A DNA stretch of 64,000 nt from Alphaproteobacteria bacterium (GCA_045602545.1 JAZSBR010000033.1:14645-78644); one strand, 5' to 3'; positions 4,610 to 30,071 are shown, counted from the first letter of the stretch. The notes: a model not told the origin generated them from the sequence alone. Numbers and translations: made by a program.

Positions 4610-4645
4610 AATTCTACCTATATAAACCTTTAGGAGTTGATTAAA

Positions 4646-6153: not shown

Positions 6154-6158
6154 GGATT

Positions 6159-7427: not shown

Positions 7428-7439
7428 TTTAACAGCCCT

Positions 7440-7680: not shown

Positions 7681-7738
7681 TTTACGGCTTAATCTGCTAA
7701 TATCAGTAAAAAATCAACCCTTTTTACGGGCAAAAAAT

Positions 7739-8581: not shown

Positions 8582-9729
8582 AATATTATCTGATTGCCGG
8601 TGAACCTTCCGGCGATGCATTGGGTTTCAAACTCATGCAAGCGTTAAAGGCCAAAGATAAAAAAGCCGAATTTGTCGGCATCGGCGGAGATTCCATGCAA
8701 TCTGCCGGCTTGAAATCGCTCTTTGATATCAGCGATTTGGCGATTATGGGTTTGGCTGAAGTAATTCCGAGCATTCCGCGCGTTTTGCGCCGTATCAGCG
8801 AAACCATTGAAGATATAAAAGCGCAAAATCCTGATGCCGTAATCAGCATAGACAGCTGGAGTTTTTGTGCGCGCATACACAAAAAATTGCGCAAACTAAA
8901 CCTCGGAATAAAGCAGATTCACTATGTTGCACCGCAAGTTTGGGCTTGGAAGAAAAAACGCGCCCGCACGATGTATAAATATATTGACCATTTGCTCACT
9001 CTATTCCCGCAAGAGCCGAAATACTTTACGCCCTACAATTTGCCGGCAACCTTTGTCGGCCATCCGGTGATTGAAAGTGAAATTGTCAACGGCGAAAAAA
9101 GTGATTTCAAAAAGCGCCACAAAATCCGTGAAAACTCAAAAATTATGCTGGTTCTCCCCGGTTCACGCCATAATGAGGTTGAGCGCCTGCTGCCCACATT
9201 TTTAGAGGTTGTGAAAAATGTTAAGGCAAAACATAAAGACTTTTCGTTTGTTGTTCCGACTGTCAGCACGGTGGCAAAAAAAGTCAAGGATATGGTAAAA
9301 GAATCCGGTCTGCCGATTATTGTGGTTGAGGGACAAAAAGAACGTCACGATGCCTTCAAAGAAGCCGAGGTTGCCATCGCCGCTTCGGGTACGGTGGCGC
9401 TGGAGCTGGCGATTGTTGACATTCCGCACATCATCGCTTATAAAGTGCCGAAACTTACCGAATGGATTGCGCGCCATTTCATTCATATTCAGTTTGTGAA
9501 TTTAACTAATATTCTGCTCGGACGCGAGGTTGTCCCTGAGCTTTTGCAAGATGATTGCAACCCGCAAAACATTGAACAATATGTTGAACAATTTATTGCA
9601 AAAAAAGACCTCTATAAGCACCAAATGGCAGGCTTTAAGGATGTGCGCAAGGTTCTGGGATTCGGCAAACAAACGCCAAGCCAAACGGCAGCCAAAACCA
9701 TTATTGAGGTAATCAAAAACAAAAAATGA
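8578..9729 (+). CDS. lpxB: lipid-A-disaccharide synthase LpxB
   Basis: 383 aa; MKYYLIAGEPSGDALG N-terminus and overall GT19 family sequence. Confidence 0.85.
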   Translation: MKYYLIAGEPSGDALGFKLMQALKAKDKKAEFVGIGGDSMQSAGLKSLFDISDLAIMGLAEVIPSIPRVLRRISETIEDIKAQNPDAVISIDSWSFCARIHKKLRKLNLGIKQIHYVAPQVWAWKKKRARTMYKYIDHLLTLFPQEPKYFTPYNLPATFVGHPVIESEIVNGEKSDFKKRHKIRENSKIMLVLPGSRHNEVERLLPTFLEVVKNVKAKHKDFSFVVPTVSTVAKKVKDMVKESGLPIIVVEGQKERHDAFKEAEVAIAASGTVALELAIVDIPHIIAYKVPKLTEWIARHFIHIQFVNLTNILLGREVVPELLQDDCNPQNIEQYVEQFIAKKDLYKHQMAGFKDVRKVLGFGKQTPSQTAAKTIIEVIKNKK

Positions 9730-11747
9730 TTCGCCGTTTTTTGCACAGCATTTACCTTAATTTCACGGAAGAGCAATCTCGCCATTTTGCGCTTGTGCCG
9801 ATTTTTTTCGCACTCGGAATCGGGCTTTATTTTTCTCTTTCTTTTGAACCGCAATATTGGGTTTGCCTTGTTGTTATTGAAGCTTTGCTACTGATTTTTT
9901 ATTTTGCCCGCCATAAAGAGGCGCTTCATTTACCTTTATTTGCTTTGTTTTTAATAACTTTAGGATTTGCCGATGCTCAGCTTCATACGCTTTATCAAAG
10001 TCGGCGCATTGAAAAAATCAGCGATGTTGCAACCTACATTTCCGGTCGGGTTATTGATATTTCGCAAAGCGCAAAAGGCAAAACGCGCTATACTTTAGAT
10101 AATGCTTTTGATTTTGAAAAACCGCTGAAGGGCAATTTTCGCCTTACTTCAATGGCAAAAAATAATGATTTTGCCGTCGGCGATTGTGTTGAAACGGCGG
10201 CAAAACTTCTCGAAGCATCGCCTATACCGCTCAAAAATTCTTTTGATTTGAACCGAAAATATTTTTTTGAAGGCTTGAGTGCAACCGGCTATACTTTGGG
10301 CGATACGTTTAAGATATCTTGCCCCGAAAACATAAAAAAATCTTCCGTTTTAACGGCAATAAATTCCTTTCGCCACAAAACCGCCGAACACATAAATTCC
10401 GTTCTTCCGATTGATGAAGCAGGAGTGATTGATGCCGTTTTAATCGGCGAAAAAAGCTATATTCCGCAGAATATTGTCGACAATTATCGCAACTCCGGAC
10501 TTGCGCATTTTTTGGCTGTTTCAGGTTTGCATTTAGGAACAATCGCCGGACTTGTGTTTTTTCTGGTGCGTTGGCTGGTTTCATTTTTTCCCAAAATTGT
10601 TTTGCGTTATGAAAGCAAAAAAATCGCCGCACTTTTTGCCATTCTTTTTGCTTTTATTTATCTGCTGATTTCCGGCATGGCAATTCCGGCGGAGCGCGCC
10701 TTTATTATGACCACAACCGTTTTAGTCGGCGTGATTTTTAATCGTCAGGCCATATCTTTGCGCATGGTAAGCTTTGCCGCTTTGATGGTGCTGATAATTT
10801 CGCCGTCGGCACTGGTTTCGGTAAGTTTTCAAATGTCGTTTGCCGCCGTCACGGCTTTAGTGGTTTTTTATGAAAAATTCGCCGCCAAAATTTCAGCTTG
10901 GAGTTATGACAAGGGCGTCATCACAAAGTTTTTATATTACCTTATCGGGGTGGTTATTTGTGATTTTGTGGCAAGTCTTGCAACCTCTCCGTTTGCGGTT
11001 TATCATTTTCAGCGCCTTGCGATATACACAAGCTTGGGCAATCTTTTAGCCGGTCCGTTGATTGCTTTCTGGCTGATGCCGACAATTTTGCTGTGCCTTG
11101 TATCATTGCCTTTCGGAGCGTTAATTTATCCGCTGAAATTATTGGGCTATGGCATTGCAATATTAAATCGCATAACCGCCTATGTTTCCGCTTTACCGGG
11201 GAGTGTTTTGTATGTTCATTCTTTAGATTTCAGCGGATTTATGTTGATTGTCTCAGGCGCAATTTGGCTGTGCTTATGGCAAAAGAATTGGCGTTATTTC
11301 GGGCTTGTTGCCATCATGGCAGGCTGTCTGACGATGTTTTTTAAGCCCGTTCCCGATGCAATCATCTCATTTAACGGAGAAGGCGTTGCTTTGCGCGCGC
11401 AAAACGGCGAGATGATTTTGGCTCCGCTCGCTAAAGCTGATAATTGGACCAAAACCATCTGGCAAGAAAATTTTGGCTTAAAAATTCCCGATAAAAAAGA
11501 AAAAAAATATTTTCAAAAAATCTTTACCGGCAAAGAAAATCCGCAAGATTTTATTGATATAAAATGTGATAAAAACAAAAATTGCTTGTATAAGAATGCG
11601 CTTAAATTGAATGCTGACGGCACCATCTTTTTACAAGATAAAATGATAGATAAAAAATTCGGCGCTTATATTTATTTTGATGGCGACAAAACATCTTTTG
11701 AACCGCTGTTATCTCCGACTTGCCGTCCGTGGCAAATTTGCAAATAA
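9726..11747 (+). CDS. comEC: ComEC/Rec2 family competence membrane protein
   Basis: 673 aa polytopic membrane protein; HFLAVSGLHLG competence-domain motif; start overlaps the lpxB stop. Confidence 0.7.
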   Translation: MIRRFLHSIYLNFTEEQSRHFALVPIFFALGIGLYFSLSFEPQYWVCLVVIEALLLIFYFARHKEALHLPLFALFLITLGFADAQLHTLYQSRRIEKISDVATYISGRVIDISQSAKGKTRYTLDNAFDFEKPLKGNFRLTSMAKNNDFAVGDCVETAAKLLEASPIPLKNSFDLNRKYFFEGLSATGYTLGDTFKISCPENIKKSSVLTAINSFRHKTAEHINSVLPIDEAGVIDAVLIGEKSYIPQNIVDNYRNSGLAHFLAVSGLHLGTIAGLVFFLVRWLVSFFPKIVLRYESKKIAALFAILFAFIYLLISGMAIPAERAFIMTTTVLVGVIFNRQAISLRMVSFAALMVLIISPSALVSVSFQMSFAAVTALVVFYEKFAAKISAWSYDKGVITKFLYYLIGVVICDFVASLATSPFAVYHFQRLAIYTSLGNLLAGPLIAFWLMPTILLCLVSLPFGALIYPLKLLGYGIAILNRITAYVSALPGSVLYVHSLDFSGFMLIVSGAIWLCLWQKNWRYFGLVAIMAGCLTMFFKPVPDAIISFNGEGVALRAQNGEMILAPLAKADNWTKTIWQENFGLKIPDKKEKKYFQKIFTGKENPQDFIDIKCDKNKNCLYKNALKLNADGTIFLQDKMIDKKFGAYIYFDGDKTSFEPLLSPTCRPWQICK

Positions 11748-11770
11748 AAACTATAAAATGTACTTTTTCT

Positions 11771-12077
11771 TTGACATCTGCTATTTTTTTTGCTAGTGTA
11801 ATATAAGAATGGCGGATACGCCGTTTTAAGAAACTTCGGTTTCGGGGCTGTAGCAGGCTCTTTGTCGATAGAGGTGCATTATTCAGTGTCCCTCTTGGAT
11901 GCTGTTTTTTTGTACCCAAAATCCCCGCATTGGTTGGGGAGATTATAGCGTATGTACAGGCTTTTTTAAAGCTAAAGGCTATAATAGTCATTACTATCGA
12001 CATGATTTGCTAACTCCCCGATCGCCTGCAATACCGGCGGTCTTTGAGTTTTAAAAGTTTTAAGAAAGGACAATGAT
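11771..12077 (+). promoter_or_regulatory. Type A conserved structured 5' leader, copy 2 (candidate promoter TTGACA-N17-TAGTGT at 11771-11799)
   Basis: Paralogous to 1546..1848; see copy 1. Confidence 0.55.
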
Positions 12078-12959
12078 ATGAAAAAGAAATTTAATAATGA
12101 ACACACGCCTAAATCAAGCGAGAATTGCGATAAATATTCCAAGAGTGTTTCGGTGGAAAAATTGTTGCAAATATCGCCTGTATTAAGGTTGGTAAAAGTT
12201 CTTGGTTTAGCGGCGGTTTTATCTTTAAATATAGTGAGCGAATCGCTGGCAGATTGCGAAAGACCAACCAATGGAATATGCAAAACACTTGGAGAAAAAG
12301 GCACTTGCGGCGAGGGTTGTTCTTATACTTATGATTCAGCTACGCAAACTGTTTACATAACCGCTACCGGTGATAATGCAAAAATTGCAGGAGCGGCTTT
12401 TCATAATTATTATTATGAAAATAATAGTATGCCGGCTCAAACTTTTATTATTAATGGTGCTATAAAAATCGGCAGTAATGCATTTAATTCACCCCAAAGA
12501 AAACTTATATCGGGAGCCGGAGGAGCATTGATTTTAACCGGAGTCAATCATGACGCATTCGGAAATGACACAACTTTATCAGGCACCATAATTATTCCGG
12601 AAGGAACAGAATTCGCTCCTCTTGCCTTTTACGGCGTAACTTTGGCAGATAATGCTAAAATATATTGCGGTGTAGAAGATTGCAAACAAAAAATGATTGA
12701 TTCTTGCAATGCTTGGGGACGTAATGAAAACGGAAATGTAACAAGTTGTCTTAATGCCGTGAACAATATGGGCAATAAATTACTTCCATATCCTGAAAAT
12801 TGCCTAAAGGTGGGAGCAATGGGTTGCACAAAGTGCAAAAATTCAAATTTCAAATTAAATGACGGCGAATGTGACAGACTGCGCTACACCCCTGCCGAGG
12901 CGGCTGAGGTTTTGCATAACGACAACACAAATTCGGTGACGATTACTTTCAAAAAATAA
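12078..12959 (+). CDS. secreted BspA-type LRR protein with conserved C-terminal domain (family member 3) and a conserved N-terminal pre-signal extension
   Basis: ATG 12078 with AAAGGA RBS; N-terminus MKKKFNNEHTPKSSENCDKYSKSVSVEKL matches the N-terminus of 6159..7427; signal-like VKVLGLAAVLSLNIVSESLA follows; C-terminus CTKCKNSNFKLNDGECDRLRYTPAEAAEVLHNDNTNSVTITFKK. Confidence 0.7.
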   Translation: MKKKFNNEHTPKSSENCDKYSKSVSVEKLLQISPVLRLVKVLGLAAVLSLNIVSESLADCERPTNGICKTLGEKGTCGEGCSYTYDSATQTVYITATGDNAKIAGAAFHNYYYENNSMPAQTFIINGAIKIGSNAFNSPQRKLISGAGGALILTGVNHDAFGNDTTLSGTIIIPEGTEFAPLAFYGVTLADNAKIYCGVEDCKQKMIDSCNAWGRNENGNVTSCLNAVNNMGNKLLPYPENCLKVGAMGCTKCKNSNFKLNDGECDRLRYTPAEAAEVLHNDNTNSVTITFKK

Positions 12960-12974
12960 TGCTCTTGAATTTTA

Positions 12975-13010
12975 TAAAAGCCCATCATCAGATGGGCTTT
13001 ACTTTTTTCA
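12975..13010. terminator. bidirectional intrinsic terminator hairpin (aaagcccatcatcagatgggcttt + T-run)
   Basis: Perfect 10-bp stem between convergent genes 12078..12959 (+) and 13026..13679 (-). Confidence 0.5.
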
Positions 13011-13025
13011 TCATAAACATAGTTT

Positions 13026-13679
13026 TTAATTAAACAAATCCCAGCGTCCGTGCTTAATGCCTTCAGCCTCTTGCTTTTTGACTTCTTCTTCAAATTTTTG
13101 TTGTTCTTCGGCCTTCTTTTTCTCTTCTTCCATTTGTTTGTTATCAAACTCAATAATTTTCTTTTCACGCTCAACTTGTTGCTGGACATTTCCGGCCAAA
13201 ACATCATATTTATCGCGATAGTTCTTTTGCTCTTTGCGCAATTCTTCAAAAACAGCCAACTGCTCGGCGTTAAGCAAACCCTTAAACTTTTCCAAACTCT
13301 GTTGTTCCAGTTCACGCGATTGGTCCCTAAGCATATAAATTGATTTCAAGAGAGATTCGCGCTTCAATCTGTCTTCTTCGCTGAATTTTTTAGCCTGATC
13401 AAGCTGATCCAAGCTCAAATCCATACGCTGGGTAAAAAAGCTGAGTGAATAGTTATTATCGGCAATTTCTTGTTTTGCTTTTGCTTCCGGAGTTAAGAAA
13501 ACTTCATTTTGCGGTTCTTGAACTTCATTTTCATTGTCAGTATTTTTTGTTTCAATCACAACAACTTCCTTTTGCTCTTCAACAACAGGCGCTGTTTGAT
13601 TTTGTTCGGCAACTTGTGCCGAGGCGTTTGCCATAATCACCAATGATAAAGCTACTGTCCACAAAGCAATATTTTTCAT
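13026..13679 (-). CDS. secreted coiled-coil protein, possibly LTXXQ/Spy-like periplasmic protein
   Basis: 217 aa; signal peptide MKNIALWTVALSLVIMANASA; Glu/Lys-rich helical repeats. Confidence 0.45.
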   Translation of the reverse strand: MKNIALWTVALSLVIMANASAQVAEQNQTAPVVEEQKEVVVIETKNTDNENEVQEPQNEVFLTPEAKAKQEIADNNYSLSFFTQRMDLSLDQLDQAKKFSEEDRLKRESLLKSIYMLRDQSRELEQQSLEKFKGLLNAEQLAVFEELRKEQKNYRDKYDVLAGNVQQQVEREKKIIEFDNKQMEEEKKKAEEQQKFEEEVKKQEAEGIKHGRWDLFN

Positions 13680-13752
13680 TAAAAATCTCCTGTAAAATAA
13701 CCTTTTGACCGAATTTTATACTTTAAAATCCTAAATTTCAACCATTTTATGT

Positions 13753-14151
13753 TTAATAGACGCGCATTTTTTTGCGGCTCGGTTTATCTTCGCCTTTATG
13801 CTCGTTATGCTGTTTTTTGAGTTGGTAGCGATACATATCAAACTTCACTTTTTGTTTTTCCGATAAAATATTTCTGATTTGTTCATCATTTTCTTCCGCC
13901 AAAGCCGCCATTTCATGATGAATGGTGTCAAGTTCCATCAAAAGAATGTTCATTTTTTCCTGATTTTGATTTCTGATATTTTTCACCTGCTCACTTTGAA
14001 AAGCCGTCAGCTTAACCTTTTTTTCCCAATCATGATTATAAAGCGACGGATATTTATCTTCCAAAGACTTTGCTTGCGCGCAAGAAAGCACCGCAAAAAA
14101 AGCAAATACAAATGCGAAAAATTTACTTAAATTCATCTTATACCCTTTCAA
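13753..14151 (-). CDS. periplasmic LTXXQ-motif protein (Spy/CpxP-like)
   Basis: 132 aa; signal peptide; LTAFQSEQVKNIRNQ... LTXXQ motif. Confidence 0.45.
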   Translation of the reverse strand: MKGYKMNLSKFFAFVFAFFAVLSCAQAKSLEDKYPSLYNHDWEKKVKLTAFQSEQVKNIRNQNQEKMNILLMELDTIHHEMAALAEENDEQIRNILSEKQKVKFDMYRYQLKKQHNEHKGEDKPSRKKMRVY

Positions 14152-14249
14152 AAAAACAAGTGCATTATACTGCCCAAAGCTTAAAATTTAAATAAAATAT
14201 TGCATAAATTTTCCGTTCCTTTTATAATGCGAGCCTGAAAGGAATTAAA

Positions 14250-15035
14250 ATGCGTTTTTTATATTGCGGAGATGTGGTTGCGCGCCCGGGACGTGAAGTT
14301 GTTTATAAAAATATGGCGCGCCTAAAAGAAGAATATAAACTTGATGTGATGATAGTTAATGTTGAAAATGCCGCACACGGTTTCGGCATAACAAGCGGAA
14401 TTGCGCGCGAATTTTTGGAAAAAGGCGCTGATGTTCTGGTTACCGGTAATCATTTTTTGAGCCAGAAAGATATTGCAAAATTTTTAGATGAGTGCAAGGT
14501 AATTATCAGGCCGGCGAATATTCCGCTCGGCAATGTCGGACGCGGATTTTGTGAATTTGAACTTGCCGACGGGCGCAAAATTGTGGTGATACAGGTTTTG
14601 GGGCGCTTATATATGGAAGCCGTTGATTGTCCGGTGCAAGCGGTTGATAATATTTTGAAAAATTATCATATGGGGAAGAATTGCTCGGCAATTTTGGTTG
14701 ATATTCATGCCGAAGCAACTTCGGAAAAACTTTCGCTCGGTTATTATCTTGACGGCAAAGTGTCTTGCGTTGCCGGAACTCATACGCATGTTCCGACAGC
14801 CGATGCCCGAATTTTGCCGCAAAAAACCGCTTATATAACCGATGTCGGCATGTGCGGAGATTATAATTCGATTTTGGGTTTTGAAACAGAAGCGCCGATA
14901 AATCGCCTGCGCCGTCATTACAGTGATGACCGTTTGACGCCGGCAAAGGGCAATGGTACGCTTTATGGAATTATTGTTGAAACGGATGATTCCACCGGCT
15001 TGGCAAAATCAATCACGCAAATAAAGTGCGACTGA
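14250..15035 (+). CDS. ymdB: YmdB-family metallophosphoesterase (2',3'-cyclic-nucleotide phosphodiesterase-like)
   Basis: MRFLYCGDVVARPGREVV...VNVENAAHGFGIT closely parallels the B. subtilis YmdB N-terminus (MRILFIGDVVGSPGR...INGENAAHGKG). Confidence 0.7.
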   Translation: MRFLYCGDVVARPGREVVYKNMARLKEEYKLDVMIVNVENAAHGFGITSGIAREFLEKGADVLVTGNHFLSQKDIAKFLDECKVIIRPANIPLGNVGRGFCEFELADGRKIVVIQVLGRLYMEAVDCPVQAVDNILKNYHMGKNCSAILVDIHAEATSEKLSLGYYLDGKVSCVAGTHTHVPTADARILPQKTAYITDVGMCGDYNSILGFETEAPINRLRRHYSDDRLTPAKGNGTLYGIIVETDDSTGLAKSITQIKCD

Positions 15036-15087
15036 TTATATTTGTCCTTTAAGGCAAAATCGATTGCAATAAAATATAGGTTAATTA

Positions 15088-15122
15088 CCCCAATGTTTCA
15101 CGTGAAACATTGGGGTAAGTGC
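15088..15122. terminator. perfect palindromic hairpin (ccccaatgtttcacgtgaaacattgggg), bidirectional terminator between convergent genes
   Basis: 12-bp perfect stem with 4-nt loop between ymdB (+) and the family gene (-). Confidence 0.5.
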
Positions 15123-15164
15123 TTGATTTTTCACAATATTATTGTCATTGTCATAAGATTTTTC

Positions 15165-16463
15165 TTATTTTTTGAAGGTTATCGTCACCTCGTTTGTGTT
15201 GTCATCTTTCAGCACCTCCGCCGCCTCGGCAGGAGTATAAATTTTGCGCAAGCACCAACCGTCATCTTCAAGCTTAAAACTGGCACTTTTGCATTTTGTG
15301 CATTTAAGATTAGCTTCCAGTTTTTCACAACCGTCAGGATAAACACTGAATTTTTTGGAAAGACTATTAAGACTCTGAAAGCAGGCTTCATTATTACTAC
15401 TTTCTTCGCAACCTTTCTTTGCCATATCATAACATGCTTTGGCACCGGAGGCACAATAGATTTTGCCGGTTATATTACTTACATTTACAGCAAAGTATTT
15501 AATACTATCAACAGAATCGGGAATAATAATATTTCCATCTATATTTGAACTTCCCAAAACCCAACCAGGCATCGTTTGCATATTTTCCGATATTATCACA
15601 TCTCCTTTGATATTTGCCCTTTCTAAAGAAGTAACCAATGGATTATTTAAATAAACATCACCATTTAAGGTTACACGATTGTTGCCATAAGTAGAATAAC
15701 TTCCAATATTATTAAATACAAATTTCCCGTTTGCGTTCAAAATTTGCGCTCCGGAATTGGCAAACGCATAATTTCCGATATTTTCAAAATCGTTATCTAA
15801 GACAATGTTTTGCAAGGGAATGACCTTATTTTGGGCGTCTTTAACCTGATTATCAGCGTAATAATATGGTGAAAATGCGCCATCGCGAATCGAGGCAGAC
15901 TTGGATATATCAGTTTTATATATATGCAAAACCTGTTGTCCGTTTTCATTAATAACTCTGTATGAACAATTGTCTCCGCAGGAATTGTTACCATTTGCAT
16001 CGGATAGTTTTTCAATGCAAGTGACTGTATAACCATGTCCTTCCTTGCAAACGGGTGTTTCTTCATCTGCTCGCGATTCGCCGGTGGTGATGAGGGTGAA
16101 AATGAGGGCAAGCGCCGGAATCGTCATTCTGAGTTGAGTTTTAGCGAAACGAAGAATCCACGGATTTAATATGAAGCGGCGTTTGTGTGCCTTACGGCAC
16201 GACGCCGGAGCGGAGATTCCTTGAGCGCCTGACGCACCGCGCAGGCGCAGGAATGACAGTACCTTTTCTGTCATCTTGAGCCTCGAGACGTTAGGCGAGC
16301 GGGCGTAAAGATCTCTTTTTGCAGAAACGCGGTATGCTTTTTGCTCCATATTTTTAACACAATCTCTACACTTGCAACATGAGATCTTGACGGGGATTTC
16401 GCTTGCGCTCAACCCCTCAAGATGACGGCAGATTATTTTTTCATTATTCTTAATTTCAAACAT
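15165..16463 (-). CDS. secreted BspA-type LRR protein with conserved C-terminal domain (family member 4); 5' region carries an in-frame GC-rich palindromic insert
   Basis: ATG 16463 with AAAGGA RBS; alternative internal start MTIPALALIFTLITTGESRA at 16127; LRR_5 repeats; C-terminus CTKCKSASFKLEDDGWCLRKIYTPAEAAEVLKDDNTNEVTITFKK. Confidence 0.65.
   Translation of the reverse strand: MFEIKNNEKIICRHLEGLSASEIPVKISCCKCRDCVKNMEQKAYRVSAKRDLYARSPNVSRLKMTEKVLSFLRLRGASGAQGISAPASCRKAHKRRFILNPWILRFAKTQLRMTIPALALIFTLITTGESRADEETPVCKEGHGYTVTCIEKLSDANGNNSCGDNCSYRVINENGQQVLHIYKTDISKSASIRDGAFSPYYYADNQVKDAQNKVIPLQNIVLDNDFENIGNYAFANSGAQILNANGKFVFNNIGSYSTYGNNRVTLNGDVYLNNPLVTSLERANIKGDVIISENMQTMPGWVLGSSNIDGNIIIPDSVDSIKYFAVNVSNITGKIYCASGAKACYDMAKKGCEESSNNEACFQSLNSLSKKFSVYPDGCEKLEANLKCTKCKSASFKLEDDGWCLRKIYTPAEAAEVLKDDNTNEVTITFKK
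16121..16437. repeat. GC-rich palindromic insertion element (RPE- or MITE-like) within the 5' coding region of the family gene
   Basis: Local GC far above flanks (gccttacggcacgacgccggagcggag...gcgcaggcgcagg); imperfect terminal inverted repeats cgtcattctgag (16122-) and ctcaagatgacgg (-16437); internal hairpins such as tgacagtaccttttctgtca; same relative position and TIR core (cgtcatt) as the 7053..7194 element. Confidence 0.45.
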
Positions 16464-16469
16464 TTGAAC

Positions 16470-16745
16470 ATTCCTTTTCTTAAAAAATTATACCACTTAA
16501 GCATAAAAGAAAATCGCCCAAAAAGGCGACTGGAAGCAGAAAACTATACAGATTAGATAGTGTGATTTATTCGCAAACCGAAGGGTTTCTTATTTCATCA
16601 CCTTCCAGCCATACGAATATGACTGAAAATAAAACTATCCCTACAAAAGGACAAATCTGTCTGAGGTTTTCTGACCTCCGAGCCTTTTATGCTCAATTAA
16701 AATGCTAGCAAAAAAATTTTGCTTTGTAAAGAGAAAAGTTAGAAA
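16470..16745 (-). promoter_or_regulatory. Type B conserved structured 5' leader, copy 2, with sigma70-like promoter TTTACA-N17-TAGCAT (complement 16702..16730)
   Basis: Paralogous to 7440..7680 and 29790..30000; terminal stem agcataaaag...cttttatgct. Confidence 0.55.
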
Positions 16746-16774
16746 AACAAATTTCAAATTAAAAAACAGTAGCG

Positions 16775-18124
16775 CTAATTTTCATCTGCCAAATCGGCTT
16801 TTATGCGCTGTCTTAAATCTTCAATTTTTAGACTGAGCTGTTTGTTCGGATTGCTTTGATGGGCATAAAAAAGCTGCTGCTTCGCCCCCTGAATATTGCC
16901 CAATCCGTAATTATATTCCGCCGCCGCATAATATGAATAAGCGCTGTCATCCGCCATCGCATATGCGCGTGAAAGCATTTGCCACCCGCTCAAACTCGGA
17001 CTTTTGTGTTGCTCCTGATTAAGCAGATTTATAACTTCCGACAATTCATCCTTATTCGGATTTGCCTCCAGCACCGACTGCGCCAAAGAAAGCTTTATCA
17101 ATCCGGAATTCGGCAAAAGTTTCAATGCCTGACGATATGCCGAAACGCTTTCTTTTGTCTTGCCGGTTTCAAACAAAAATTGCCCTTTTAGCTCATGAAA
17201 AAAAGGATTATTCGGCTGATTTTTTATCAAACCGTCAATTGTTTGCATGGCACGCGCCATATCGGCTTCTCTGAAATACAAAATTGCGTGCGCATATTGC
17301 GCTTCAGTTGAATTTGCTGATTTAGGATATAATCGCCAAGCTTTTGATTTATCACTCAAAAAGGCGATTATTTTTGCTTTTATGAGCTTTAATTTACCGT
17401 CTAACGGACTTTGTGCTGAAAATTTATTGCTCTTTGCCACGCTTTCAAAATGGCTTATGCGCTCGTTCGTCATCGGGTGAGTGGCAAAATATTCATTTTC
17501 TTCCATTCCGCTCAAAGCATAGCGGCGCTTGATTTTTTTCATAAATCTTTTTAAGCCCTCGGCAGATTGCTTGGTTGCACTCAAGAGTTTTACGGCGCTT
17601 TCATCGGCGCTTCGCTCTTCCTCCACCTGATGATGAAGCATGCTGTGCAAAGCCGAAGTTTGAGTTCCCAAAATCACCGCCATTGCCGCATCACCTCGCC
17701 CACTGCCGATAGCAGCCGCGCCGGCCGCCAACATTGAGCCCATCATAGCATATTGCATCTTCTTGATTTTGAGCTTTTGGCGAACAATATGCCCACCCAA
17801 AATATGTCCGGTTTCGTGCGCCAAAACTCCGGCAAGTTCATTGGTGTTATCAACTTCGGTTAATGTTCCCGTATTGATAAAAAGATAGTTGCCGTCACTG
17901 ACAAAAGCATTCAGCGAATTGTCATTAACAATTAAGATTTTATTTTCATCAAAAGGCAATCCCGCGGCCTTAAACAACGGTTGCACAACTTTTGAGAGAT
18001 AATCCGAAGTTTCTGCATCGCTGATTAAGGCAAGTTCATCAGCACAAGCGCATGGCGCCGATAAAAGCGCCGTGCTTATGCTTAAAAATATTCCGAAAAT
18101 CAGCCGATAAGCTTTTTCCACCAA
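16775..18124 (-). CDS. M48-family Zn metalloprotease with C-terminal TPR repeats (BepA/YfgC-like)
   Basis: 449 aa; signal peptide; HETGHILGGH (HExxH) motif; TPR-like helical C-terminal half. Confidence 0.7.
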   Translation of the reverse strand: MVEKAYRLIFGIFLSISTALLSAPCACADELALISDAETSDYLSKVVQPLFKAAGLPFDENKILIVNDNSLNAFVSDGNYLFINTGTLTEVDNTNELAGVLAHETGHILGGHIVRQKLKIKKMQYAMMGSMLAAGAAAIGSGRGDAAMAVILGTQTSALHSMLHHQVEEERSADESAVKLLSATKQSAEGLKRFMKKIKRRYALSGMEENEYFATHPMTNERISHFESVAKSNKFSAQSPLDGKLKLIKAKIIAFLSDKSKAWRLYPKSANSTEAQYAHAILYFREADMARAMQTIDGLIKNQPNNPFFHELKGQFLFETGKTKESVSAYRQALKLLPNSGLIKLSLAQSVLEANPNKDELSEVINLLNQEQHKSPSLSGWQMLSRAYAMADDSAYSYYAAAEYNYGLGNIQGAKQQLFYAHQSNPNKQLSLKIEDLRQRIKADLADEN

Positions 18125-20424
18125 GATTTTTTCTCCGGCTTAGGCTCTGGTTCTGTTGTGACCGGAGCCTCATTTCTGTGTTCACGGCGAAAACCGTTTT
18201 TGAAATGTCTGTTTCTTCTGTTTTTGCGGAAATAGTTATTGCGCTCGTCTTTAACATTGCCTTCATCTTGCGAATCGTAGTCATCAGTTTCATCCGGCTC
18301 ATCTTCATCAACATTATCGGCTTCATAACAAGTTGTGGCAACATCTTTTGCATTAACTTTTTTCTGAACATTTTTTTCTTTTGCGATTTTGAAATCCGAA
18401 ACATCTTTAATGCTCATATCGCCTGAAACAACAATACTTACGCCATACACTTCTTCCAAAGCCGCCAAATTGCGACGTTTTTGATTGAGTAAATAAGCCG
18501 CTGTTTCCGTCGGCGCACTGACGCTGATTTTGCAATTTTTGTTGCGAACACACTCGCCTTCCAAAGCACGCAAAACAAGCGTTGCACCTGATTCAATCGT
18601 ACGAATTACGCCATGCCCGTGGCAATACGGACAAACTTCATAATTGCTTTCAACAAAAGAAGAGTGCATTCTCTGGCGCGAAATTTCCAACAGTCCGAAA
18701 ATACTCATTTTAGCAACCTGAATGCGCGCTCTGTCGCCCTTTAAGGCTTCTTTCATTTTCTTTTCAACGGCAACATTGTTTTGCGGTTCATACATATCAA
18801 TAAAGTCAACAACCACAAGACCTGCCAAATCACGCATTTTCAGCTGTTTGGCAATTTCTTCCGCTGCTTCCAAATTTGTTTTCAAAGCGGTTTCTTCAAT
18901 GTCTTTTTCCTTTGTGGCGCGACCGGAGTTTACATCAATTGAAACAAGAGCTTCGGTCGGATTTATCACTAAATAACCGCCTGATGCCAGCTGAACAATC
19001 GGATTGTGTAATTTATCAAGCTGTGCCTCAATTTGAAAACGTTGAAATACCGGAACTTCGCCCGCTTTACGACACTTAATGTGCTTTAAGTTGTGCGGTG
19101 ACAAAACTTTAACAAACTCGCGCGCGGTTTTATAGGCTTCATCGCCGTCAATAATCACCTCGGAAATATCCTTGGTATACATATCACGCAACGCGCGCTT
19201 AATTAAGTTTCCTTCTTCATAGACCATTGCCGGCGGATTGTTGCGCAGTGCCGCATAACGAATGGCGTTCCAAGTGCGAATCAAATAGTTATAATCGCGC
19301 ACAATATCTGATTTTGTTTTATCTTCACCAGCGGTACGCACAATTAAAGACATATCATCAACAATCGGCAACTCACGCAAAATGCCTTTCAAGCGACGAC
19401 GGTCATTTGAACTGGTGATTTTGCGCGAAACACCACCGCTTTTAATGCGATTCGGCATCAAGACGCAATATCTTCCCGCCAAGGAAACATATGTTGTGCA
19501 AGCCGCACCTTTATTTCCGCGCTCTTCTTTTACTATCTGAACAAGCAAAACCTGCCCTTCTTTAATAACATCTTGAATCACGCTGCGATGATACAATTTT
19601 CTGGCTCTTAATAACTTGCGCTGAGCATCAAACGCGTGGTCATAAATTGAGGTGGCGTTTTCCATTGCCTCATCGTCTTCGTCATCGTCATCAACATCAA
19701 CCAAGTCTTCCAAAGCATCATCATCAATGCCGGTGGCATCGGCCATGGTTGTTGTTTTCTTTTTCTTTGAGGCATAAGGACGGCGACGGCGATATTTAAC
19801 TTTTTTAGCGCCGGATTCGCTCTGCTCTTGTTCAGCAACTTGTTCTTGACCTTCTTCCTGCGCCGGAATTTCTTCCTCGTCAACAGCATTGTTTTCGCTT
19901 TTCTCAGGCGGATTATTTTCCTGATTTTCCTCACTTATAACAACTGCTTCAATCTCTTCTTGTTCAGCATCAAATTCTTCCGGAAAAGCATTTTCAACCG
20001 GTTCAAGCTGAGAATCTTCAATTTGCGAAGTTTGCTCCGCCTCTAAACGACGCGCTGCTTCTTTAGCCTCTTTTTCGGCACGATAGCGCGCTTTTTGCTC
20101 TTCACGTTCTTTAATGCGATTGATTTTATTTTGGATTATTTCATTAACTTCGGCATCAACTTGCGCCAGAACTTCATCGGAAACATGATAATAATCCGGA
20201 TGAATTTCATTAAAAGCCAAAAAACCGTGTTTATTTCCGCCATAATCCACAAATGCCGCCTGCAATGACGGTTCAATTCTGATAACTTTGGCGAGATAAA
20301 TATTTCCTTTGATTTGCTTTCTGGAAGTGGATTCAAACTCCACATCTTCAACCTTATTTCCATCAACGATAACAACTCTGGTTTCTTCCGGTTGCGTATC
20401 ATCAATAAGCATTCTTTTTGTCAT
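18100..20424 (-). CDS. rne: ribonuclease E
   Basis: N-terminus MTKRMLIDDTQPEETRVVIVDGNKVEDVEFES...NIYLAKVIRIEPSLQAAFVDYG is typical of the RNase E/G S1 catalytic domain; acidic and Arg-rich C-terminal scaffold; probable start ATG 20424 (track 20493 extends into the UTR). Confidence 0.8.
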   Translation of the reverse strand: MTKRMLIDDTQPEETRVVIVDGNKVEDVEFESTSRKQIKGNIYLAKVIRIEPSLQAAFVDYGGNKHGFLAFNEIHPDYYHVSDEVLAQVDAEVNEIIQNKINRIKEREEQKARYRAEKEAKEAARRLEAEQTSQIEDSQLEPVENAFPEEFDAEQEEIEAVVISEENQENNPPEKSENNAVDEEEIPAQEEGQEQVAEQEQSESGAKKVKYRRRRPYASKKKKTTTMADATGIDDDALEDLVDVDDDDEDDEAMENATSIYDHAFDAQRKLLRARKLYHRSVIQDVIKEGQVLLVQIVKEERGNKGAACTTYVSLAGRYCVLMPNRIKSGGVSRKITSSNDRRRLKGILRELPIVDDMSLIVRTAGEDKTKSDIVRDYNYLIRTWNAIRYAALRNNPPAMVYEEGNLIKRALRDMYTKDISEVIIDGDEAYKTAREFVKVLSPHNLKHIKCRKAGEVPVFQRFQIEAQLDKLHNPIVQLASGGYLVINPTEALVSIDVNSGRATKEKDIEETALKTNLEAAEEIAKQLKMRDLAGLVVVDFIDMYEPQNNVAVEKKMKEALKGDRARIQVAKMSIFGLLEISRQRMHSSFVESNYEVCPYCHGHGVIRTIESGATLVLRALEGECVRNKNCKISVSAPTETAAYLLNQKRRNLAALEEVYGVSIVVSGDMSIKDVSDFKIAKEKNVQKKVNAKDVATTCYEADNVDEDEPDETDDYDSQDEGNVKDERNNYFRKNRRNRHFKNGFRREHRNEAPVTTEPEPKPEKKSWWKKLIG

Positions 20425-20806
20425 CTTTATAATTCCTTTTTTTAATTCCCTAAAAAAGGGAAAATTTCTCCGCGAGCACAGATAACACGGCAAGGAATAA
20501 CACCATCGGCAGTAAATCTGCCTGAAAATTTTTGGCGGTTAACAATTCCGCTATTTGCCCTATGCCGAACTAAAGTCTGCGTTTTTCTTCTTTTTTATTA
20601 AGACTTGTCCGGCAGGTTATCTTTACTCAATTTTCATTACCATAAACAGCTGATTTTCGCACGGTTTCCCTTTTATTTTCTACTCTCTGTCGGCGAAACT
20701 CAAGCCGGTAACTTTTTACACAATATAAGAATAAAATTAAATTACAACAAAAAAAGTGATTTATCGGAAATTTTTTATTTTTTTCCAGATTCTAAAGAAA
20801 AGACTA

Positions 20807-20846
20807 TTGACTTTTATTCAAAATTGCTGTACAAAATTTGTACAAA
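20807..20846 (+). promoter_or_regulatory. candidate promoter (TTGACT-N17-TACAAA) overlapped by a perfect 8-1-8 palindromic operator TGTACAAA-a-TTTGTACA (20828..20844)
   Basis: Inverted repeat read directly from sequence, 36 bp upstream of the ATG of the higher-GC gene. Confidence 0.4.
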
Positions 20847-20880
20847 TATTTTATTATTCATTCACCAAAACAATACAATT

Positions 20881-21534
20881 ATGAAAAAAAACTATGCTTC
20901 TCTGGTGCCTTTTACGGCTATCAGAAAAAATGAGTTCACGGTGTATGTGCTTCTTCAAGCCGGAAACACCGAAAAGTTAGTGCAAATGCTAAAAGATGGT
21001 CTGCTATTGTCGGCCTACTGCCTCACACTCATGGACATCTTCGGCATGAGTAAGGACGAAATCCGCGACATGGTCGCAACGGCCAAACGTGTTCAGAAAG
21101 ACACCTTCTGGTGGCTCAAGGACCGCTTCACGCTAGAGGAAATCAGCGGTCTTTTAAAGAAATGGAAGAATCGCCTGCCTAAGCGCCTCCTGACCGATGA
21201 AGAAAGGGCTGATTTAGGTATGTACAGCGTTCTTCTGAAACTTGAGCGCTATGACATCTTGGCCGAGCGTGCCCCGAAGGTGCTACTCTACCAAATTGTG
21301 CACCGAACCAAGGATATGTTTGCCTCCGCCAAGGCTTTGCTGGAGTACGACTTCAACAAGTATGCCGACTCCTTCTTTGAGAAAAGTTTGCAAGGCAGCT
21401 TCCTGGCCGTTGAGGGTGGCTGGAAATATCTGGTCAACCATGGCAAGAAGGACTTTGTCATTCAGAACATCGGCAACCAGTTTGCCAACCTTCCTCCTAA
21501 GGATGTTGTTTTGGCATACTGTGCCAACAGTTAA
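20881..21534 (+). CDS. hypothetical protein of probable foreign origin (higher GC, distinct codon usage)
   Basis: ATG 20881 (MKKNYASLVPFTAIRKNEF...); local GC near 48-50% vs about 38% flanks; frequent CTG/GCC/AAG codons unlike the rest of the window; the ORF-track start at 20605 runs through the AT-rich upstream region. Confidence 0.5.
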   Translation: MKKNYASLVPFTAIRKNEFTVYVLLQAGNTEKLVQMLKDGLLLSAYCLTLMDIFGMSKDEIRDMVATAKRVQKDTFWWLKDRFTLEEISGLLKKWKNRLPKRLLTDEERADLGMYSVLLKLERYDILAERAPKVLLYQIVHRTKDMFASAKALLEYDFNKYADSFFEKSLQGSFLAVEGGWKYLVNHGKKDFVIQNIGNQFANLPPKDVVLAYCANS

Positions 21535-21588: not shown

Positions 21589-24500
21589 TTACTCATCGCC
21601 GAAATTTTCAAAATACCACTCTTTAAGCGAATTAGGGCTGAGCATAGAGAGCGAATTTATATCAATATCCGGATTTTCGGTGTCGCCCTCAATATCATAG
21701 GTGGCGGCAAAAATCGTTCCGTCCTTGCCCGCCAAAACATTACCGACAAGAGGAATTTTTCCCAAAAAGCGATTGACACTGTATGCCGGCGCGATAACTC
21801 CTTTAAGATTTATGCCGGTTGTGGCGCGGTTAAATGTGCCGTCAGCCGTAAGCCCCAAAACATTACCTTCTGCCTTGGCTTTTTTAAGAAGCAAAATTTT
21901 ACGATTATATTCAAACGGCGCATTAAAGTGCGTAAAAGTCAAACCATCGCCTTTAATTAAATCAATCATTCCCGTGAACGAGGCAACCGTCAAAAGTTTA
22001 GTCATGACCGGTGCGTTTTGAATGCTGAAATCACGCACAAGCGCATGCCCGATAAATTTTTTATCCTTACCGCGACGCGCTTCAATTTTCATTGTTCCGC
22101 CAACCATATTTTCATATAGGCGCAAAACCTTTAATGTGCTTCCGGCGTTGTTACTGTCAATAGAAAGATAATGCTCTCCGCCTGCTATCGGCGTATAATC
22201 CAATTTAAGCTTGATAGATTTATCTATCCCGTAATTTCCGACCATATGCACTTCTTCAAGCCCGACACCTTTTTTTAGCTGAACACTGCCGGCGAAATTT
22301 TGTATCGGGGTAGTTGCATTCGTCCAAAGGCTGTTCACATTAACAAAAATTTCTGTATTATATATATCTTCCAACCCGTCATCTTCATTGTCTTGCGAAG
22401 GATTTTTACCTTTATCCGCACCGGTATCTGCTTTATCAAAGAGAGGTATTAAGTTATAACTGCTACCGGAAACATCAACTTTAATTTTCGGATTATCGGC
22501 ATCGCTGATAGCAATTTTTGCTTTTGCCGAAGTTTTATCGCCGGTAATTTGACCGATATTAACGGTTTTAACTCTTCCGCTCGGGTGCATATCAACGTTG
22601 CCTGAAATATCAAATCCGAATTGGTGATAATTAAGGCTTTTAACCATACGCACTTTATTTTTTTCAACTTCTATAACAGCCTTCAAACTTGCCGGAACGC
22701 CGGCTTTTTTAGAAAATCCGAAATAAGGATAATTCAATTCGGTATTATTCAAATCGGCAACCGCCGAAATTTCTATTTTATCATCGGCATTAACCACCAC
22801 ATCTGCTGAAACTGAAGATTTTCCAATCATATTCGGCGCATCTAATATCGCCCAATCTATACCCAAATTTTTCTTTGCAACATTGTCTAAAACAAAGAAA
22901 ATCTTACACTTGCTTTTATACTTTTTATCCGTAAAATCCTCATCAATTTTAAGCTGAACCGGAATATCGTCATAGGTAATATCTCCGAGCAAATGCCAGC
23001 CCTTTGAATTTACCTTCAAATTCATTTCATCGGCACCGAGTTTATGTTGCGGAATGATTTTTTCAATATTAACTTTATGCAAATCAGCATTGACAACAAC
23101 CTTAATTTCTTCCGGCAACAGGTCTTGCTTTAGCTCAAAATCAAGTTTCAAATTAACATCCATATTTCCGCCGATGTCATTCGGATTTATTCCCATTTCT
23201 TTAGTAAATTCAAGCGGAGGATTATTTATCAATTTCAAGGCATCGGTTATGGATGAATTACCGGTCAAATCAATAGAAATATAGTTGTTATATTTATCCA
23301 AATCATAAATTTTTACCTTTCCGGATGTAACAATCACCCCGTCGGAAACACCTTTGTCAATATCAACGGTAATAGTGTTTTGCGTGAATTTTGCCAATCC
23401 GTAGACATCATGAACAACCGGCATTCCTTCCAGATAAAAAATATCTCCGTCATTCAAATAAGCATTGCCGTCAAGTTTCAACAAATCAAAAACTTCATTT
23501 TTTTTGTTATATCCGAAATCAAAAACAAATTTTCCGTTTTTTGCAATTCCCGATTTCAAGCTGTCTTTACACCATTCCCACGCCGGCTCGGCAAAATAAC
23601 GTGGCCAAAAACGAGGCAAATCGGAAAGCGAAAATTCTTCAATATTTGCTTCCATTTTAACAAACAAATCCTGCAGAGAATTTTCCCAAATATATGATTC
23701 CAAACCGCCGGCAGTAAAAGAAACCAAAGCCTTTTGCCCTCCGAGCTTAACCGTTGCATCTTTTATTCTCAACTCGTCAATACCGCCGGTCATCTCGCCG
23801 ACAAGTGAAAACTCATCAATATCATAGTTATATTTTTCGTCCTCGTTAAAAGCGATATGCCCGTGTCCGCCATCAAGCTCAAAACCGATTTTATCAACCG
23901 CACCACCCAAATAATCGGGAACTTCATCGGGATGAGCCAAAATATCAGCCAAAGCAATAGTAGTGTTAACTTTGCCGTTAAGCGGAATATTAAAACTCAT
24001 TGTTGCCAGATCACTTTCTTCGGTTGAAGAATTAAAGCTGTTCCAAAAATCGGAAATCGTCAAATCCGAAAAATATACTTCCAAATCAAGCTTATCATCC
24101 GCTGTGTGATATTCGCTTTCAAAACCGACGGAAGCAATTTTATCATCCAAATTAACAAGCGTATTGGCATTTGCTTTTAAGTTTATAAAATCTCGAGCAA
24201 ATTCAAAATTCAAGTCGGAAAAAAGCCACTTGCGCCCAAGCTCAACCTCATGAAGTTCTATTTCACCGTCTTTTACGGTTATGTTATTAACGAAGCTTTC
24301 CGGATATATTTTTTCTTCGGCATTGTAGTTTTTCAAAAACTCTTTAAATTTTTCAACATAGAACTGTGTTTTTTTCTTGCTGATTTCCAGCTCGCTTTTT
24401 TCTTCCAGACCATAATCGGCAAAAATATAAACGCTGGGATTTTCAACACTGATATCGCTCGGAGCAATTATACCTTTTAACAGCGCCCTAAGCGAAAATG

Positions 24501-24804
24501 AAAGATATAGTTTCGGCGCGCTGATTGAAAAAGTATCGTCTTTTTTCTTTAAGCTGATATTTTTGGCGGTAATTCTTATCGGCTGAATTGAGCGCACAAG
24601 CTCCATATTAACATCTTTTAAGCCAACCTTATATTCGCTGTCATCAAAATTAAGAGCCTGAATGATATATGGTTTTAAGTAAGGAACTGAAACCGGTCCG
24701 CGGTAAAGTGTCCAAAAAAACAACAGCACCACCAGCAACATTCCGACCACAAAATAGTCGAAAGTTTTTTTCAAAAAATAAAGCCGATGGGAAATCTTTT
24801 TCAT
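21589..24804 (-). CDS. AsmA/YhdP-like large envelope-biogenesis protein (DUF3971-type)
   Basis: 1071 aa; single N-terminal TM (FVVGMLLVVLLFFWTLY); long beta-rich periplasmic body; size and topology typical of alphaproteobacterial AsmA-family proteins. Confidence 0.5.
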   Translation of the reverse strand: MKKISHRLYFLKKTFDYFVVGMLLVVLLFFWTLYRGPVSVPYLKPYIIQALNFDDSEYKVGLKDVNMELVRSIQPIRITAKNISLKKKDDTFSISAPKLYLSFSLRALLKGIIAPSDISVENPSVYIFADYGLEEKSELEISKKKTQFYVEKFKEFLKNYNAEEKIYPESFVNNITVKDGEIELHEVELGRKWLFSDLNFEFARDFINLKANANTLVNLDDKIASVGFESEYHTADDKLDLEVYFSDLTISDFWNSFNSSTEESDLATMSFNIPLNGKVNTTIALADILAHPDEVPDYLGGAVDKIGFELDGGHGHIAFNEDEKYNYDIDEFSLVGEMTGGIDELRIKDATVKLGGQKALVSFTAGGLESYIWENSLQDLFVKMEANIEEFSLSDLPRFWPRYFAEPAWEWCKDSLKSGIAKNGKFVFDFGYNKKNEVFDLLKLDGNAYLNDGDIFYLEGMPVVHDVYGLAKFTQNTITVDIDKGVSDGVIVTSGKVKIYDLDKYNNYISIDLTGNSSITDALKLINNPPLEFTKEMGINPNDIGGNMDVNLKLDFELKQDLLPEEIKVVVNADLHKVNIEKIIPQHKLGADEMNLKVNSKGWHLLGDITYDDIPVQLKIDEDFTDKKYKSKCKIFFVLDNVAKKNLGIDWAILDAPNMIGKSSVSADVVVNADDKIEISAVADLNNTELNYPYFGFSKKAGVPASLKAVIEVEKNKVRMVKSLNYHQFGFDISGNVDMHPSGRVKTVNIGQITGDKTSAKAKIAISDADNPKIKVDVSGSSYNLIPLFDKADTGADKGKNPSQDNEDDGLEDIYNTEIFVNVNSLWTNATTPIQNFAGSVQLKKGVGLEEVHMVGNYGIDKSIKLKLDYTPIAGGEHYLSIDSNNAGSTLKVLRLYENMVGGTMKIEARRGKDKKFIGHALVRDFSIQNAPVMTKLLTVASFTGMIDLIKGDGLTFTHFNAPFEYNRKILLLKKAKAEGNVLGLTADGTFNRATTGINLKGVIAPAYSVNRFLGKIPLVGNVLAGKDGTIFAATYDIEGDTENPDIDINSLSMLSPNSLKEWYFENFGDE

Positions 24805-24822
24805 TTTGTGCCTCTTGTTTTT

Positions 24823-29789: not shown

Positions 29790-30071
29790 TATTATTTTTT
29801 CTTTACAACACAAAATTTTTCTGCTAGCATTTCAGGTGAGCATAAAAGGCTCAGAGGTCTGATAGCCTCTAACACATTAGTCCTTTTCAGAGGATGGTTT
29901 TAATTTCAGTCATACGTTAAATATGACTGGAAGGTGGTGAAATAAGAAGGGGTAACCTTTACGAATAAATCACACTATCTAATGTGTTATAGTTATCAGC
30001 TTCCAGTCGCCTTTTTTGAGGGCGATTTTTCTTTTATGCGCGGTTTAATCTTTTTAAGAAAGGAAAAAATT
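29790..30071 (+). promoter_or_regulatory. Type B conserved structured 5' leader, copy 3, with sigma70-like promoter TTTACA-N17-TAGCAT (29802..29830)
   Basis: Reverse complement of the 16470..16745 element in the same orientation relative to its downstream gene; gagcataaaaggctcagaggt...ctggaaggtggtgaaataagaa...cttccagtcgcctttttt. Confidence 0.55.

Follow-up and report, generated by a model that had tools for sequence, protein, structure and literature searches.

The 64,000-nucleotide stretch of DNA analyzed here (GCA_045602545.1, JAZSBR010000033.1:14645-78644; hereafter the window) comes from an uncultured gut alphaproteobacterium and carries three copies of a structured leader, type B, placed between a sigma70-like promoter and a surface-protein gene. 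We propose that type B is a cis-regulatory leader RNA, not described before, whose most likely mode of action is transcription attenuation, a reading to which we give a probability of roughly 0.55; it looks like a new riboswitch-like on/off element. The proposal builds on a covarying structure of the sense strand, a consensus intrinsic terminator, a covarying alternative pairing, and a fixed position between promoter and gene, each of which is directly supported.

Type B copies and their promoters

The three copies, c1 to c3, were confirmed where a preliminary description of the window had placed them, and the genes that follow were as it had described, namely two leucine-rich repeat (LRR) genes and a prepilin-like gene. 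The copies and genes are as follows.

c1, (-) strand: copy 7440-7680; promoter and leader 7463-7665; leader 7629-7463, short variant without helix P4 (covariance model, 156.5 bits)
c2, (-) strand: copy 16470-16745; promoter and leader 16499-16730; leader 16694-16499, long variant, 196 nt with both P1 arms included (187.5 bits)
c3, (+) strand: copy 29790-30071; promoter and leader 29802-30041; leader 29838-30041, long variant (175.4 bits)
6159-7427, (-) strand: c1 gene, BspA-type LRR protein
15165-16463, (-) strand: c2 gene, BspA-type LRR protein with the C-terminus ...RYTPAEAAEVL..NTNEVTITFKK; ribosome-binding site 16471-16481
30072-30737, (+) strand: c3 gene, monocistronic, type IVb prepilin-like protein

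The copies could be aligned across ~300 nt with a mean column identity of 75%. When the window was searched with a three-copy nhmmer profile, only c1, c2, and c3 were recovered as full copies (E values of 7e-85, 5e-84, and 3e-68), together with an extra weak match to the promoter part only at 1530-1575; the sequence GAGCATAAAAGGCTC occurred exactly three times. In each copy, the promoter ends 7-8 nt 5′ of GAGCAU and is followed by an RNA of 167-204 nt. Copies c2 and c3 are 83-93% identical from the -35 box through the ribosome-binding site and show no similarity beyond this span, and their downstream genes are unrelated; the promoter-leader therefore behaves as a portable module.

Further copies were obtained from contigs encoding homologs of the LRR family and, for a diverged copy termed B′, with the covariance model R1. 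They came from five other gut metagenome samples, giving eight copies across six samples.

L022:2052-2226: complete type B copy
L023:5459-5658: complete type B copy, long subtype
L024:9839-10008: complete type B copy
L025:11114-11256: partial type B copy with a scaffold or assembly gap inside, preceding the gene of a Cys-rich non-LRR protein
L030:9777-9970: diverged copy B′ (model R1, 40.7 bits, E value of 9e-10), directly 5′ of another LRR gene

A family gene on the same strand follows each of the eight copies directly, every copy has a sigma70-like promoter, and the 3′ end of the RNA is ~30-36 nt upstream of the start codon in every case. The fixed orientation relative to the downstream gene, previously noted for the three window copies, thus extends to the type B and B′ copies of all six samples. 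The promoter layout, ending 7-8 nt before GAGCAU, is kept in the seven type B copies.

The promoter scan called TTTACA-N17-TAGCAT with a TG-extended -10 box in c2 (16730..16702) and c3 (29802..29830). In c1 (7665-7637), the sequence reads TTTACA-N17-TAACCT, and the scan made no call for this -10 box, which is degenerate as stated in the preliminary description. For c2, transcription is predicted to start at ~16695. All cassette promoter spacers observed were 17 nt long, with a run of 5-8 T residues before a TG-extended -10 box (16708-16724, 7643-7659, 29808-29824, 1554-1570, and 11773-11790), and a slipped-strand change of spacer length could give phase variation of these promoters.

A match to a known non-coding RNA family, which would have counted against the preliminary description, did not occur: at gathering scores, no Rfam family matched anywhere in the window, c-di-GMP-I and c-di-GMP-II included, and permissive E values applied to c2, c3, and the L022 to L024 copies returned only chance-level matches, all to unrelated models of eukaryotic RNAs and small RNAs. 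When public DNA collections were scanned with GAGCATAAAAGGCTCNGAGG, the conserved 5′ block, or with a shortened version of it, there were 4 matches in GTDB representatives, 11 in JGI metagenomes, and 2 in IMG/VR, all confined to the ~20-nt seed and attributable to chance, which suggests that the element is absent from, or diverged in, these collections. The c2 leader had no match in plasmids and phages.

The leader RNA folds into a covarying architecture

The RNAs of c1 to c3 fold far better than their shuffled counterparts (z of -6.9 to -7.9; 0 of 200 shuffles as good), and the six complete copies independently fold into one architecture despite differing sequences of P2b, P3, and P6. Helix P1 pairs the exact 5′ end, GAGCAUAAAAG, with CUUUUAUGCUC. 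This is the 11-bp terminal stem reported earlier; it is perfect in c1 only, with a terminal G.U pair in c2 and one mismatch in c3. Inside it, P2a (GGAGG/CUUCC) is followed by P2b, an invariant 3x3 internal loop CUC/AUA, and P3, which together enclose a core of P5 and P6, with P4 added in the long subtype (c2, c3, and L023). A GC-rich hairpin and a U-run are situated between P2a and the P1 3′ arm. The elements of c2, all on the (-) strand, are listed below.

16702..16730: promoter; -35 box TTTACA 16730-16725, -10 box TAGCAT 16707-16702, 17-nt spacer with a run of seven T residues and TG
16684..16694: P1 5′ arm GAGCAUAAAAG; in the nascent RNA, GAGC/GCUC can form a small hairpin, P0
16663..16679: GGAGG-U-CAGAAAAC-CUC, the 5′ strands of P2a and P2b, or a local hairpin P2′ (GAGGU/ACCUC)
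16602..16629: P5 hairpin, whose 3′ strand GGCUGGAAG (16610-16602) doubles as the 5′ strand of the candidate antiterminator
16562..16601: P6 hairpin; its stems covary, and its purine-rich internal loop, GAAAUAAG/GAAUAA, is conserved
16528..16536: foot CUUCCAGUC, able to pair with GGAGG (P2a) and the terminator 3′ arm, or with GGCUGGAAG (antiterminator)
16502..16531: terminator, stem-loop AGUCGCCUUUUUGGGCGAUU (16531-16512) and U-rich tail UUCUUUUAUG, which overlaps the P1 3′ arm (16509-16499)

Covariation was evaluated in two alignments. RNAalifold applied to the raw MAFFT alignment favored the local hairpin P2′ and missed the long-range helices because P3 was misaligned, and its consensus was replaced by a consensus of the per-sequence lowest-energy folds and a covariance model. 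With this structure, 90.4% of the cells in the 62 pairs of the MAFFT alignment were paired, against 42-50% when partners were slid, and 22 pairs had changed on both sides, against 9.6±1.9 in shuffles (0 of 500 reached 22). In the model-based alignment of the eight sequences, 92.5% of the cells in 61 pairs were paired (43-48% with slid partners), and 31 of the 61 pairs had changed on both sides (12.7±2.4 in shuffles; 0 of 500 reached 31), including every pair of P3 (6/6) and of P6a (5/5). The P3 sequences are essentially unrelated among copies (ACAGAUU, AACACAUUAG, UGGAAAU, GAUACGAU, AAUAUAACAAA, and AACACAAAA), and the unpaired blocks CUC/AUA, GAAAUAAG/GAAUAA, and ACUAU are invariant. A covarying structured domain with conserved unpaired nucleotides, as expected of a riboswitch, is therefore present.

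G.U pairs outnumbered A.C pairs by 39 to 7, and folding was 6-18 kcal/mol more favorable for the sense than for the antisense strand; it is therefore the transcribed sense RNA, and not double-stranded DNA, that carries the structure. On the opposite strand of c3 (29851-29872, (-) strand), the P2′ hairpin and the complement of the P1 5′ arm form a weak terminator-like site, which makes the element quasi-symmetrical, with a hairpin beside each repeat arm.

An intrinsic terminator and a covarying alternative pairing

A GC-rich hairpin followed by a U-run, the consensus of an intrinsic terminator, was found in all six complete copies in our own scan, and terminator-like sites were also called separately in the three window copies. 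Both parts are kept even though the stem differs by subtype (GUCGCC/GGCGAU versus CCUCCG/CGGAGG). The 9-nt foot of the terminator (CUUCCAGUC or CUUCCGACC) is complementary to GGAGG and the terminator 3′ arm, and also to the 3′ strand of P5 (GGCUGGAAG or GGUCGGAAG). The corresponding segments of the other two window copies are as follows.

7493-7478, (-) strand: c1 terminator ACCUCCGUUCGGAGGU
7569-7561 and 7499-7491, (-) strand: c1 antiterminator strands GGUCGGAAG and CUUCCGACC
30005-30027, (+) strand: c3 terminator
29925-29933 and 30000-30008, (+) strand: c3 antiterminator strands

The antiterminator helix is 98% paired across the copies, and four of its nine pairs have changed on both sides. 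It exists in three variants: GGCUGGAAG/CUUCCAGUC, GGUCGGAAG/CUUCCGACC, and, in B′, GCGGAUGU/ACAUCCGC, whose sequence is unrelated. A U-to-A change in B′ preserves the antiterminator pair and breaks a pair of P2a. The open state alone can accommodate two further local hairpins: P2′, GAGGU/ACCUC in type B and, in our reading of the B′ sequence, AGGG/CCCU; and P3alt, which reads ACUAU/AUAGU in type B and, after one compensatory change, GCCAU/AUGGU in B′.

The preliminary description had recognized real internal stems, which it read incompletely: cctccgNNcggagg is the stem of the intrinsic terminator, and ggtcggaagg/cttccgacc is an antiterminator-type pairing outside the lowest-energy fold. The terminator and the alternative pairings, which it had missed, make the structured leader a likely attenuator. 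Two other types of control were rejected. Leader-peptide attenuation was discarded on the grounds that the sole short open reading frame (ORF; MAGR*/MVGR*) has no ribosome-binding site and is missing from L022, and an ANTAR-type two-hairpin target was discarded on the basis of loop sequences and lengths, which do not match that motif.

Proposed mechanism

In the model that we favor, a sigma70-type promoter would start transcription at the first base of the element and give a leader RNA of ~170 nt (short form) or ~200 nt (long form). In a closed fold, the closing helix (P2a, P2b, the CUC/AUA loop, and P3) would surround the multi-branch core of P5 and P6, plus P4 in the long form, and would be directly followed by the intrinsic terminator, so that transcription would stop before the gene. 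In an open fold, the foot (CUUCCAGUC or CUUCCGACC) would pair with the P5 3′ strand as an antiterminator, removing 3-4 terminator pairs, and this would be accompanied by the local hairpins P2′ and P3alt. The choice would probably be made co-transcriptionally, in the short interval when the closing helix must displace a pre-formed P2′, and an effector, whether small molecule, protein, or RNA, would bias it. After read-through, the 5′ end would pair with the U-run region (P1), closing the leader and leaving the ribosome-binding site free ~30 nt downstream. From the sequence we infer that the predicted promoter is used, that termination and read-through take place, that an effector exists, and in which direction control runs.

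Folding of the nascent transcript is consistent with this timing. P0 and P2′ appeared first, and the exchange of P2′ for P2b was nearly isoenergetic until CUUCC paired with GGAGG, just before the terminator is transcribed, which makes this exchange a plausible kinetic decision point.

Several points weigh against this model. When only nested folding is considered, the terminator state is favored over the antiterminator state by 10-16 kcal/mol; it is therefore the thermodynamic default, and switching needs kinetic control, a strong effector, or a pseudoknotted form. P0, P2′, and P3alt are invariant in type B, and their sole covariation comes from one diverged sequence. P1 is likewise invariant in the type B copies; covariation thus neither supports nor contradicts its pairing, and the invariance could reflect a DNA-level constraint. 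Only eight related sequences from about six samples stand behind the covariation, the shuffle controls take no account of phylogeny, and the model-based alignment tends to favor the model to which it was fitted. The promoter, termination, and read-through are all predictions. No candidate ligand or regulator was identified, and since the downstream genes encode surface proteins and not enzymes or transporters, the gene context offers no clue to a ligand.

Variation of promoter-leader-gene cassettes between strains

A contig of the same species, L018 (~94% nucleotide identity; 97% for the M48 protease), is collinear with window positions 1214-18799 and lacks four segments of the window, each corresponding to one promoter-leader-gene unit.

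15034-16790, (-) strand: c2 leader, LRR gene, and flanks; L018 has 14 nt instead
6161-7645: c1 leader and LRR gene
11751-12975: type A leader (described below) and LRR gene
1542-2671: type A leader and LRR gene

The differences are whole cassettes of 1.1-1.8 kb with imprecise ends and no target duplication. These single-gene cassettes sit among housekeeping genes (M48/YmdB, ComEC, LpxI/DUF1349, and Elm1). The relatives L019 to L021, found via the neighboring M48 protease, do not have the cassettes, and in the more distant L021, homology ends 29 nt before the -35 box of c3. Comparison with this related species over 16790-20755 and 22447-29773 also revealed an inversion of the block 22447-29773 that has c3 at one of its breakpoints; the other breakpoint holds 1.7 kb with a 309-aa ORF (20605-21534) that has no Pfam match.

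Taken together, the whole-cassette differences, the sharing between c2 and c3, and the mosaic LRR genes indicate that the leader is a module within highly recombining, strain-variable surface-protein cassettes and is not itself a transposable unit. Of the surface-protein regulon on a mobile or duplicated cassette that had been envisaged earlier, the portable module is supported.

Downstream genes

The leader is common to genes of unrelated surface proteins, namely LRR proteins, a pilin, and the Cys-rich non-LRR protein of L025, which makes their co-regulation a reasonable inference. The LRR family is small (194 proteins among 5.8 billion, mostly on short ENA contigs), and no member was found in viral contigs. 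The nearest relatives of the host clade are metagenome-assembled genomes from gut-type samples, labelled Alphaproteobacteria bacterium, and neither genetics nor a described regulatory RNA is known to us from this clade. The LRR genes are mosaics whose modules are shared in differing combinations. Every protein of the family terminates in a conserved motif, RYTPAEAAEVLxxDNTNxVTITFKK* (6159-6255, 15165-15261, 12843-12959, 2604-2676, and 39830-39866 of the window, and L025:10116-10200), the Cys-rich non-LRR protein of L025 included (RYTPAEAA..NTN.VTITFKK); this terminus may be a sorting or secretion signal.

At their 5′ ends (7066-7427 and 16120-16463), the c1 and c2 ORFs contain 110-125 codons before a signal-peptide-like segment, MTIPxxALxFTLITTxESRA. 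Over its first 27 codons, the c1 ORF is similar to the beginning of the gene at 12078. In L022 (2260-2325), a stop codon ends the extension after 21 codons, and the gene call begins at a later position. The N-terminal extension may thus be dispensable or an upstream ORF. A fifth LRR gene of the family, at 38967-39863 (+) between queA and ruvX, has only ~150 nt upstream, with a promoter-like TTTACT-N17-TATACT and no structured leader.

The c3 protein was assigned as a type IVb pilin because its relatives carry bundlin/PilS domains; an exact-protein look-up returned no record for it. Its closest fetched homolog, L005, is 44% identical and has no type B leader. The ~900-nt region upstream of that gene (L005:9090-10000) is unrelated, with two ~117-nt tandem repeats and a terminator just before the gene; in this clade, pilin genes may commonly be preceded by long leaders with a terminator.

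Alternative explanations

The strongest competitor, which we regard as unlikely, is that type B is a constitutive structural leader without a switch, protecting the 5′ end from RNase E-type decay or serving as a processing site, with a leaky terminator and alternative pairings as by-products. Such a leaky attenuator would also release a stable ~185-nt RNA, which may act in trans. The strong thermodynamic preference for the closed fold fits this explanation, as do the pairing of the exact 5′ end with the U-run region in P1 and the presence of several leader copies per genome, as is often the case in small-RNA families. It has difficulty with the complementarity between the foot and the P5 3′ strand, which is kept through three variants, once at the expense of P2a, and is hard to explain otherwise; moreover, an unregulated terminator that separates a gene from its own promoter is a costly arrangement.

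The inverted-repeat layout raises two explanations at the DNA level. A site-specific recombinase might flip the segment between the 11-bp repeats GAGCATAAAAG and CTTTTATGCTC, with the promoter outside, so that the assembled orientation would be OFF and the flipped one ON. A precedent is the cwpV phase-variation switch of Clostridioides difficile, in which the promoter lies outside a 195-bp segment flanked by 21-bp inverted repeats, with no ORF inside and a terminator in the OFF transcript only (PMC2784873). The layout matches, the c2 arms (16694-16684 and 16509-16499) enclosing neither an ORF nor the promoter (16730-16702); the repeat arms are invariant while the inner helices vary; and flipping the segment in silico abolished the terminator in four of six copies and left only weak sites in two. 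All eight assembled copies from the six samples nevertheless have one orientation, although consensus assemblies display only the majority orientation and hide minority forms. No recombinase was present among the window ORFs scanned against Pfam, although the enzyme could be encoded elsewhere in the genome. The dense nested covariation of P2b, P3, P5, and P6 is not required for inversion, and neither is the surplus of G.U over A.C pairs; the diverged copy has only a weak terminal repeat. We consider such a switch improbable.

The other DNA-level explanation, put forward in the preliminary description, is a miniature inverted-repeat transposable element (MITE) carrying or creating an outward promoter. 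It could account for the 11-bp terminal inverted repeats, the several near-identical copies, and the hairpins beside both ends. Several findings speak against it: no copy is solitary or randomly oriented, either in the window or in ~290 kb of related fetched DNA; no target-site duplication flanks the terminal repeats of c1 to c3; the promoter lies outside the repeat-bounded segment; the L018 polymorphism spans whole promoter-leader-gene units with imprecise ends; and plasmids, phages, and viral contigs gave no match. We therefore give the MITE explanation very little credence.

A second leader, type A

A second structured leader of ~250 nt, type A, is also terminator-bearing, precedes LRR genes, and has no Rfam match. 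Its copies are listed below.

1590-1848, (+) strand, window
11815-12077, (+) strand, window
L025:~4265-4538
L027:~5985-6257
L030:3581-3799
L030:13847-14081

RNAalifold predicted 54 pairs for type A, 20 of them with compensatory changes. The closing strand is CGGGG/CCCCG, and a hairpin 3′ strand, GGGGAG, is complementary to a foot, CUCCCC or CUCUCC, which is followed by the terminator. Type A resembles type B in gene family, kind of promoter, and outer plan, with a 5′ hairpin, a closing helix of the CGGRG/CYCCG type, and a complement to the terminator foot, and the outer ends of the two appear to be homologous (AAAAGGnnUCGGAG ... CAACUyUCCGACC). They differ in the sequence and branching of the inner domain, and model R1 gives type A only 23-33 bits. 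The shared outer design suggests a common expression platform with two inner domains. A further step, possible but tentative, is that A and B are two sensor domains on one terminator/antiterminator platform, either new riboswitch classes or targets of RNA-binding regulators, which travel as portable promoter-switch modules with adhesin and pilin cassettes between housekeeping genes. If so, the strain-variable surface repertoire of a gut symbiont would be under one or two common chemical or physiological signals.

Elsewhere in the window, positions 40377-63977 (-) encode a chromosomal type IV secretion system with a VirB11-like ATPase, VirB9/CagX, two VirB8 paralogs, and VirB4. Its genes are interleaved with those of giant proteins (41362-45552, 45555-49346, and 52841-56983), the first two of which consist of 51-nt (17-aa) repeats.

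Discussion

The RNA structure of type B is well supported and had no annotation, and it appears to control whether adhesin-like LRR proteins and a type IVb pilin are expressed. Attachment and antigenic appearance are determined by such genes, which vary here among strains of one species. Should the attenuator model hold, type B would be a new orphan riboswitch-like motif with a clear expression platform and an example of a regulatory module moving between unrelated surface-protein genes; with type A, it would also point to possible sensor swapping on a common platform.

Known systems share some of these features. The Correia elements of Neisseria are intergenic repeats with terminal inverted repeats that are transcribed in 5′ untranslated regions and form hairpins. 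Type B differs from them in having no solitary copies or target-site duplication, a fixed position relative to promoter and start codon, and a multi-branch covarying structure. The cwpV locus is the closest in layout: type B shares with it the order of a promoter, an inverted-repeat-flanked segment of ~170-195 bp, and a surface-protein gene, and in type B an intrinsic terminator forms in the leader in the assembled orientation. The repeats of type B are 11 bp long in contrast to the 21 bp of cwpV, and the cwpV model needs neither the RNA covariation nor the alternative antiterminator found here.

In its likely function, type B comes closest to terminator/antiterminator riboswitch leaders, the nearest example being the C. 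difficile c-di-GMP riboswitches upstream of adhesin genes and of pilA1, which encodes a type IV pilin (PMC6200980). Type B, found in an uncultured alphaproteobacterium, differs from these riboswitches in that neither its sequence nor its structure matches GEMM-I, c-di-GMP-II, or another Rfam family, and in its long closing helix, its three- or four-way core, and a terminator located inside the helix that joins the 5′ end to the U-run. In both cases, one leader class with a structured, covarying domain stands before a pilin gene and several adhesin-like genes. In the C. difficile leaders, premature termination yields truncated RNAs and read-through proceeds via an alternative fold; judging from its pairing potential, type B may well operate in the same way.
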